DNA of 11,826 bases from a virus (lineage: Duplodnaviria > Heunggongvirae > Uroviricota > Caudoviricetes), in IMG/VR virus record IMGVR_UViG_2778261065_000019; one strand, given 5' to 3'. The translations under genes were made by a program, and so were the position numbers. This document shows, one piece after another, positions 9,203-9,581 of this stretch (positions are counted from its first letter, which is position 1; the number at the start of each line of letters is the position of its first letter). The notes under the pieces were generated by a model. It saw nothing but the letters and a program-made list of their open reading frames with translations, made no database searches and was not told the origin of the DNA.

Positions 9203-9299
9203 AGCTACCTCGATACTCTCGTTATCGTTGGTGGTTAGAAGCCCGGTTAGTGTTAGCGCACTGCCGGGTTTCGTCGTTTCTGCACCTTGTATCAACAAG

Positions 9300-9380
9300 G
9301 TGTAAGACACAATGTAAAATAATAGTGTCTTACACGTCAACCCTTCAAAATAATTTTTTTTCGTGTATATTGTCTTACAC
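9300..9380. promoter_or_regulatory. Three operator-like repeats in the divergent promoter region
   Basis: GTGTAAGACAC (9300-9310) and its exact reverse complement GTGTCTTACAC (9325-9335), plus TTGTCTTACAC (9370-9380), which overlaps the candidate -10 TATATT (9366-9371; -35 TTCAAA 9344-9349) of the RHH gene. Confidence 0.5.
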
Positions 9381-9401
9381 CAAAAACATAAGGAGTTAGA
9401 C

Positions 9402-9581
9402 ATGGCAACAGGTCCAAAGAATGCAAAATCACAATCTGTAACTGCACGTATTGCCCATGAAATTATTGAAGGCATGGAAAACGTGAAAGAAGAAGGCGAA
9501 AGTACAGGGCAGTTTATAAGTGCAGCCATGCGCGGCGAGATCAAACGCCGCCAGCGCCGCAAGGCCAAAGAGCAGGAGTAG
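9402..9581 (+). CDS. Small RHH-like DNA-binding regulator (59 aa)
   Basis: Strong SD AAGGAG (9390-9395) 6 nt before the ATG at 9402. Translation MATGPKNAKSQSVTARIAHEIIEGMENVKEEGESTGQFISAAMRGEIKRRQ... fits a strand-helix-helix pattern. Divergent from the early operon. Confidence 0.55.
   Translation: MATGPKNAKSQSVTARIAHEIIEGMENVKEEGESTGQFISAAMRGEIKRRQRRKAKEQE

Follow-up and report, generated by a model that had tools for sequence, protein, structure and literature searches.

The DNA analysed here is an 11,826-nt stretch of viral sequence (IMG/VR record IMGVR_UViG_2778261065_000019, called the window below), which is a phage satellite of about 11 kb of the EcCICFT073 type, a Gram-negative PICI (phage-inducible chromosomal island). 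We examined the region in which a small gene, ylcI, faces the early operon of this satellite across a group of short repeats. ylcI (9402-9581, plus strand) encodes a 59-aa protein of the YlcI/YnfO family with a predicted ribbon-helix-helix (RHH) fold and carries an AGGAG 6 nt before its ATG. The divergent early genes are on the minus strand, and their first ORF, which is Ash/Icd-like, begins with an ATG at 9202 and not at 9203, where an earlier note, made from the sequence alone, had placed its edge. A consensus scan predicts two promoters standing back to back between these genes: an early promoter at 9311-9340 on the minus strand (-35 TTGACG at 9340-9335, 18-nt spacer, -10 TACATT at 9316-9311) and a ylcI promoter at 9344-9371 on the plus strand (-35 TTCAAA at 9344-9349, 16-nt spacer, -10 TATATT at 9366-9371).

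Three 11-bp boxes, O1 to O3, are distributed over these promoters. O1 (9300-9310; GTGTCTTACAC on the minus strand, GTGTAAGACAC on the plus strand) lies directly downstream of the early -10, over the predicted early start site, and O2 (9325-9335; GTGTCTTACAC) is within the early promoter spacer and abuts its -35. O3 (9370-9380; TTGTCTTACAC) matches at 10 of 11 positions. The earlier note had described it as a third half-site lying over the ylcI -10; this proved inexact, since O3 overlaps only the last 2 nt of the -10, covers the predicted ylcI start site and is a complete, if slightly weaker, box. A repeat search delimits two inverted arms of 14 nt at 93% identity (9300-9313 and 9322-9335), whose 11-bp cores, GTGTAAGACAC and GTGTCTTACAC, are perfect with 14 bp between them, and a direct copy, ATATTGTCTTACAC, at 9367-9380 (93%). 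There are exactly three copies of the 10-mer TGTCTTACAC in the 11.8-kb window, all inside the same 81 bp, compared to a mean of 0.48 in shuffled sequences. Allowing one mismatch adds no site in the window. With up to three mismatches, 26 matches were found where 21.9 are expected; the additional ones all carry three mismatches and none is convincing.

The earlier note had also called the 59-aa protein RHH-like, a view in line with its predicted fold. YlcI reaches 66.8 bits (E 1.2e-18) against the NCBIfam model NF041551 (YlcI/YnfO; DUF3950), the cut-off of which is 30. It also matches phrog_949, RefSeq assigns the identical gene to the YlcI/YnfO family, and 113 relatives were collected across Enterobacterales. 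An AlphaFold2 model computed from a 28-sequence alignment (pLDDT 89.8) presents an extended N-terminus and helices at residues 19-28 and 35-58. This predicted order of an N-terminal strand followed by two helices is structurally similar to that of solved RHH proteins. The turn between the helices is G32-E33-S34-T35, in which E33 and S34 are invariant and T35 nearly so. The strand S10-Q11-S12-V13-T14-A15-R16-I17 has an alternating pattern, its even positions being polar and either variable or invariant. Residues 11-15 of this strand are the most variable segment of YlcI, whereas R16, like the outer triplets of the boxes, never varies. Alignment with hhalign sets YlcI residues 12, 14 and 16 opposite Gln9, Asn11 and Arg13 of Arc and His6, Asn8 and Arg10 of Mnt, which we take to be the base-reading positions of these repressors (Arc-operator structure, Mnt specificity mutants). 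S12 and T14 are our proposed specificity determinants. Pfam gives no Arc match, and the hhalign probability is 8% for Arc and 0.4% for Mnt; YlcI would work like Arc and Mnt, judging by this alignment, while not being a member of their family.

Boxes and YlcI residues across related loci

For comparison we used 53 loci from about 20 genera, obtained by scanning one genome per species. Three 11-bp boxes of the form GTG-N5-CAC were found upstream of ylcI in 53/53. Relative to the ylcI ATG, O2 keeps a position of about -77 and O3 one of about -32 throughout the set; O1, likewise present in all 53, lies 22-25 or 35-38 bp beyond O2, in either orientation. The consensus of O2 is GTG.....CAC(G/T)TCAA, and at least 80% of the loci conserve both the TTGA(C/A) beside O2 and the ylcI -10, for which the family consensus is TATACT. 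The cognate repeats overlap core elements of both divergent promoters, as these are predicted by consensus.

O3 always has the orientation of O2, and its first base is usually C or T and not G, because this base falls within TATACT; the change should make O3 a weaker site. O1 and O2 are direct repeats at varied spacing in many loci, and in many classes all three boxes are direct. The palindromic operator pair separated by 14 bp, as it was first described in the earlier note, is thus real as a pair of inverted repeats in the window (9300-9310 and 9325-9335), but the palindrome is not the conserved unit. We conclude that the working unit is the single 11-bp box, presumably occupied by one YlcI dimer by analogy with the omega repressor.

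The outer GTG and CAC are common to the loci, while the central 5 bp vary and follow residues 12 and 14 of YlcI. Serine and threonine at these two positions (S/T) go with the core TCTTA, M/T with AAATA, L/T with AAACA, and A or S followed by K with TGGCC. K/Q is associated with GACTC or GATTC, K/E with TCAGC, R/D with TCGGA, Q/N with AATCG or AATAG, Q/S with AACAC and Q/V with CATGC. Box core and residue pair share 2.94 of a possible 3.0 bits, and the maximum obtained in 5000 permutations was 1.71. In a sample of eight genomes with two ylcI loci (L004/L025, L019/L044, L030/L046, L037/L045, L027/L035, L024/L041, L013/L050 and L026/L051), the two box/residue classes differ in 8/8. This fits hetero-immunity, the chance of such a result being about 0.19, which is not significant alone.

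A stronger argument comes from natural exchanges of the module. Between the window and L055 or EcCICFT073, AlpA is identical (68/68 residues), the protein of the 80-aa gene differs at a single position (79/80), and identity is 96-100% both in the early region (8577-9050) and in the right flank (9700-10450). The replaced part is limited to about 9245-9610, with the boxes and ylcI. This swap changes the boxes from GTGTCTTACAC to GTGTGGCCCAC together with the strand sequence from SVTA to ALKA, and YlcI is the sole protein encoded in the swapped segment. Like swaps occurred independently in Xenorhabdus (L004 compared to L025 and L028) and in Pectobacterium (L019, L037, L038 and L047), and 70 pairs of loci share their boxes despite both flanks being less than 60% identical. 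The boxes move together with ylcI and independently of AlpA and the flanks.

The ylcI gene of the K-12 prophage DLP12 was considered as a possible member of an immI-like module and rejected: it adjoins cos and nohD, and no C4/isrK RNA genes (see below) are nearby. At this locus (L064 5252-5834), three CATCTAC/CATCAAC repeats and a CACGTCAA motif are laid out as are the satellite boxes.

RNA elements, a long antisense frame and the surrounding satellite

The early leader is covered on its opposite strand by a candidate small RNA (9199-9282, plus strand) resembling SymR. It is predicted to form two stem-loops, the second being terminator-like with a U-rich tail, and it is antisense to the leader, the Shine-Dalgarno and the start codon at 9202. 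In the window, the plus strand folds with a z-score of -5.1 compared to -2.8 for the minus strand. Across the aligned loci the element has 21 pairs, 13 of them with compensatory changes, and 0/500 shuffles reach the observed values; 97.6% of the cells pair on the plus strand and 85.7% on the minus strand, with 123 G.U against 8 A.C cells. The Rfam symR model (RF01809) matches this same place in four loci, the window and three others, at 32-37.5 bits (33 in the window), below its gathering score of 61. In the other direction, a model built from 46 satellite sequences (R1) matches the annotated K-12 symR from end to end (32.4 bits, E 6.7e-6; L067 5836-5912). Both RNAs measure about 77 nt and share a two-hairpin layout that starts just inside the target ORF and covers the start codon and Shine-Dalgarno; the target here is the satellite early ORF and not symE. 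The candidate satellite RNA is either related to SymR or convergent with it, but is no member by the Rfam standard, and the symE/symR pair of K-12 may be related to the satellite early leader. A candidate extended -10 for this RNA, TGgTATGAT, can be read at 9187-9195 (plus strand), and a TAnnnT located 7-8 nt before the 5′ end is kept in nearly all aligned loci, though the codons that it overlaps differ. On the minus strand, an 8-bp stem-loop (CACCTTGT/ACAAGGTG, 9283-9302) overlaps O1 at the very start of the predicted early transcript, where it may have a function; similar hairpins are found in several loci.

Further into the early operon, two RNA genes of the P1/P4 immunity type both lie inside the Ash/Icd-like ORF, on the minus strand. 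The first is an isrK-like leader that contains the a1/b1 targets of C4 RNA; it occupies 8943-9032 (Rfam isrK, RF01394, 80 bits against a gathering score of 50; c4-a1b1, 42.9 bits) and has an intrinsic terminator at 8965-8947. A C4/CI-type immunity RNA follows at 8834-8921 (Rfam C4, RF01695, 75.3 bits against 45). Some Gram-negative PICIs were already described as having RNA immunity of this type (PMC10111431). The match to Pfam Phage_ASH (residues 59-151) coincides exactly with these RNA genes, and the ORF has two Icd-like repeats flanking them, the first of which is missing in L055 and EcCICFT073. We considered that the Ash/Icd ORF might be spurious over C4/isrK and that Phage_ASH might have been modelled on translated RNA genes. 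This idea was dropped because the CI RNA of P4 lies in a real gene, eta (PMC10111431), and because the start codons are coupled to upstream genes. We also rejected the notion that the YlcI module always accompanies C4/isrK: among 11 loci scanned, C4 and isrK are restricted to the window lineage, and the YlcI module is therefore independent of them.

The early strand contains in addition a stop-free frame of 423 codons (8588-9859, minus strand). It opens with a GTG at 9859, 4 nt after the alpA stop, and crosses ylcI, the two promoters and the three boxes in antisense before entering the Ash/Icd-like ORF. In 43 of 52 loci an equally open frame extends past the end of ylcI. Within ylcI itself the antisense frame has no stop in any of 51 distinct genes, when resampling of synonymous codons predicts 20.8 ± 3.3. 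The frame attains 433 codons in EcCICFT073 (L066) and 782 codons in L061, where it passes three opposite-strand genes; the opposite-strand genes crossed by the longer frames include those for TumE and HVO_A0114. Overlap of its first start codon with the stop of the gene upstream, frequently over 4 nt, is seen in many loci. A PHROG search with the N-terminal 219 codons of the long frame gave no family. In P4, the early promoter is internal to eta, which is coupled to vis, and translation of eta prevents termination (PMC10111431). The long frame resembles eta as described there and differs from it in having a repressor gene embedded in antisense.

As a satellite, the window carries the hallmarks of Gram-negative PICIs: int, alpA, a D5-type primase, SSB, and capsid and decoration genes, with integration next to a tRNA gene. 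Gene calls and family searches place on the minus strand int (10585-11826), an 80-aa gene, alpA (9864-10070; Pfam Phage_AlpA, 33.3 bits), and then the Ash/Icd-like ORF, DUF4222, the primase (6092-7846) and SSB, as well as a lambda-E-like capsid gene with its decoration gene. alpA converges on ylcI, precedes the long frame and encodes the known activator of this satellite class (PMC6092414). In PHROG, the early ORF hits families that bear the label 'transcriptional repressor'. A sequence identical to the window resides in E. coli MFDS1022581, beside tRNA-Pro and between yejM and yejO, and EcCICFT073 has the same gene order and late module, ylcI included. The segment 9150-9650 (ylcI, boxes and early leader) was matched in 1333 of 5426 complete E. 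coli genomes. In 50,697 phage records, neither this segment (blastn, distant mode) nor YlcI (tblastn) found a match.

On the ylcI side, an intrinsic terminator (9682-9715, plus strand) would end the ylcI transcript ahead of an antisense run into alpA. The stretch from ylcI up to this terminator, here taken as 9682-9707, is conserved (9582-9716, plus strand) in L055 and EcCICFT073, where an extra gene separates it from ylcI. L058, which is otherwise unrelated, has 84-96% identity over the terminator and the next ~50 nt (about 9690-9760). A perfect extended -10, TGATATAAT, follows at 9752-9760 (plus strand) with an intrinsic terminator ~45 nt later (9805-9832), an arrangement conserved in EcCICFT073. 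A second small RNA (9766-9836, plus strand), antisense to the region just after the alpA stop, could be made from it; the folding of this candidate and of the ylcI 3′ UTR barely exceeds that of shuffled sequences (z -1.8 and -2.2, respectively). In EcCICFT073, L066 8243-8653 (NC_004431.1 1380242-1380652) comprises ylcI (C_RS30120) and the extra same-strand gene of 57 aa (C_RS30800). Both were probably missing from the annotation behind the original experiments, since their locus tags are late additions. In L003, L007, L009, L017 and L043, other genes separate ylcI from alpA, and the Rfam int-alpA RNA motif (RF02996), which was not detected in the window, lies ~2.4-3 kb from ylcI. At the far end of the window, a 123-aa ORF (660-1031, minus strand) weakly matches the ANR (AraC negative regulator) family next to a gene that RefSeq assigns to the PerC family; a PICI gene annotated as PerC was reported in 2025 to act as a repressor of LEE (PMC11773190).

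A proposed early switch and its alternatives

We propose that YlcI is an RHH protein expressed from its own promoter, that its dimers bind the three GTG-N5-CAC boxes and repress both the early operon and ylcI, and that induction bypasses YlcI; we give this reading a probability of roughly 0.7. The analysis computed the repeats and the position of the boxes relative to consensus promoters, the family and predicted fold of YlcI, its co-variation with the boxes and the cassette swaps, and from these we infer binding, repression, its timing and the bypass. The autoregulated repressor that also controls the divergent early operon, as proposed in the earlier note, is in our opinion well supported by the co-variation of core and residues, by the swapping of boxes with ylcI and by the position of the boxes over both predicted promoters. 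The same note took this region for the probable control point between maintenance and induction of the island. It would be one layer of that control and not the sole one, given the SymR-like RNA, C4/isrK, the stop-free frame and induction by AlpA.

In a resident island, YlcI bound to the strong boxes O1 and O2 would occlude the internal early promoter of the operon extending from the Icd/Ash-like gene to the primase. Through O3, at the ylcI start site, it would exert negative autoregulation and hold its own level; the weaker O3 suits an autoregulation that starts only after the early promoter is shut. The central 5 bp of each box would be read by the β-strand residues 12 and 14, from which it would follow that different satellites carry different, non-cross-reacting repressor/operator pairs, of at least a dozen classes. 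These classes would set immunity specificity, like the immunity types of lambdoid phages. Leader transcripts escaping repression might be blocked for translation by the SymR-like RNA and, in the window lineage, the remainder terminated or silenced by C4 RNA. Upon entry into a cell devoid of YlcI, the early promoter is expected to fire until YlcI accumulates and then to be shut down. Helper phages turn on alpA, and expression of AlpA alone induces EcCICFT073 (PMC6092414). AlpA-driven transcripts, translated as the long frame, could then read through into the early genes and collide with transcription of ylcI.

The last step is part of a broader and more tentative proposal, which we favour less than its negation. 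The repressor gene, with promoters and operators, would be placed inside, and antisense to, a translated frame coupled to the stop of the upstream gene (alpA) and running into the early genes, and selection would keep this corridor free of stops even across other opposite-strand genes. Induction would consist in translation-coupled read-through from an AlpA-activated promoter, bypassing the repressed promoter, overriding RNA termination and silencing ylcI by head-on transcription. With the SymR-like RNA, this would amount to a four-layer switch, combined with a dozen or more orthogonal RHH/operator pairs obeying a two-residue code.

Several points weigh against YlcI as the repressor of both promoters. 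Both promoters are consensus matches only. The fold model is that of a monomer, and RHH proteins bind DNA as dimers. No Pfam family was found for YlcI at E-values up to 0.1, and a sequence search of the PDB returned no solved relative, only a chance coiled-coil match. O3 deviates beyond its usual first base in some loci (CTGTCCCCCAC in EcCICFT073), and autorepression may therefore be weak there. Shared ancestry inflates the information score, and the cassette swaps are the stronger argument. The RNA immunity of the window lineage could make the protein layer partly redundant. Finally, overexpression of AlpA is sufficient to induce EcCICFT073 (PMC6092414), which implies that YlcI is not the only gate.

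Among the alternatives, the one that survives best, though we consider it unlikely, is that YlcI does bind the boxes but is made during induction, to turn expression off late or to modulate it in the manner of Cro or Arc, or else is an activator, and is not the maintenance repressor of the resident island. AlpA is known as the inducer, and the RHH protein Arc of P22 offers a precedent, being made only after derepression to shut the operon again. A late modulator is however difficult to reconcile with the divergent predicted promoter of ylcI, whose -10 is near consensus (TATACT in the family), and with the location of ylcI outside the early operon, an arrangement which is Mnt-like and not Arc-like. 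The placement of boxes within a promoter spacer and over a start site suits repression and not activation.

It is less probable still that the binder of the boxes is a different island protein (AlpA or an Ash/Icd/Bro-type early protein) or a host factor and that YlcI does something else. AlpA-family proteins bind DNA, P4 Vis is said to act at the early promoter, and the 'transcriptional repressor' label of the families matched by the early ORF could designate the early protein as the binder. Yet islands with identical AlpA have different boxes, the flanking early region stays 96-100% identical across the swap, and in every class the boxes follow residues 12 and 14 of YlcI. A host factor is excluded by the fact that boxes differ between islands of one host species.

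We think it improbable to a still higher degree that the true early-gene switch is RNA-based, formed by the SymR-like antisense RNA and C4/isrK, with the protein only fine-tuning its own level. C4 and isrK are far above their Rfam gathering scores, the SymR-like RNA is conserved at least as well as the boxes, and P4 immunity is, to our knowledge, purely RNA-based, with no protein repressor at the early promoter. Against this, C4/isrK are confined to one lineage of the 11 loci scanned when boxes at the early promoter are universal, and two of the three boxes are on the early promoter and not on that of ylcI. Lastly, that the repeats act in RNA, as a hairpin in read-through or ylcI transcripts and not as DNA operators, is hardly credible: O1 and O2 are inverted in the window and could pair, in a region dense in functional RNA structure, but they are direct repeats in many loci at distances from 22 to 38 bp, no hairpin is conserved because O3 is always oriented as O2, and the boxes co-vary with protein residues.

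RHH repressors acting on divergent promoters are classic, as illustrated by Mnt and Arc of P22 with the sar antisense RNA, and this kind of switch is therefore already known. The layout described here shares with P22 immI a small RHH repressor gene divergent from the operon that it would control, operators over both promoters and a short antisense RNA, like sar, over the ribosome-binding site of the controlled transcript. It differs in having three separate 11-bp boxes, where P22 has one operator of 17-21 bp bound by a tetramer, and one repressor instead of two; the operon under control serves the replication of a satellite, and no family-level sequence relation to Arc is detectable (pairwise hhalign E only 0.004). 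The omega repressor of pSM19035, also an RHH protein, binds contiguous 7-bp heptads, in contrast to 11-bp boxes 22-45 bp apart. With P4 the satellite shares the order alpA/vis, long ORF with internal early promoter, CI/C4 RNA inside this ORF, and primase; the repressor gene, two promoters and three operators lying antisense inside the long ORF set it apart. The tblastn search of the 50,697 phage records, among which the presence of P4 is unconfirmed, returned no ylcI homologue. Like Stl/Rpr of SaPIs, YlcI would be a divergent repressor whose gene separates the integrase side of a phage satellite from its replication operon (PMC6092414). However, Stl is a large helix-turn-helix protein that helper-phage proteins inactivate, YlcI is an RHH protein of only 59 aa for which helper-dependent derepression is not known, and induction of Gram-negative PICIs, unlike that of Gram-positive PICIs, goes through AlpA.

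What is new is the function proposed for YlcI/YnfO, the natural recognition table and the antisense embedding in a stop-free frame. In full-text searches of the literature we found no description of an RHH regulator in PICIs, nor of the other findings reported here, and a 2026 survey of satellites lists YlcI/YnfO in cf-PICIs only as 'prophage-associated protein'. If correct, our proposal gives Gram-negative satellites of this kind a repressor that they were thought to lack, and assigns a role to the uncharacterised YlcI/YnfO (DUF3950) family. The prototype of these satellites, EcCICFT073, is an established system that carries the ylcI/three-box module and allows a direct test. The dozen natural classes, differing mainly at two residues and five bp, constitute a recognition table for RHH proteins and could serve as orthogonal repressor parts. 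Hetero-immunity between them would explain how several related satellites share one genome.

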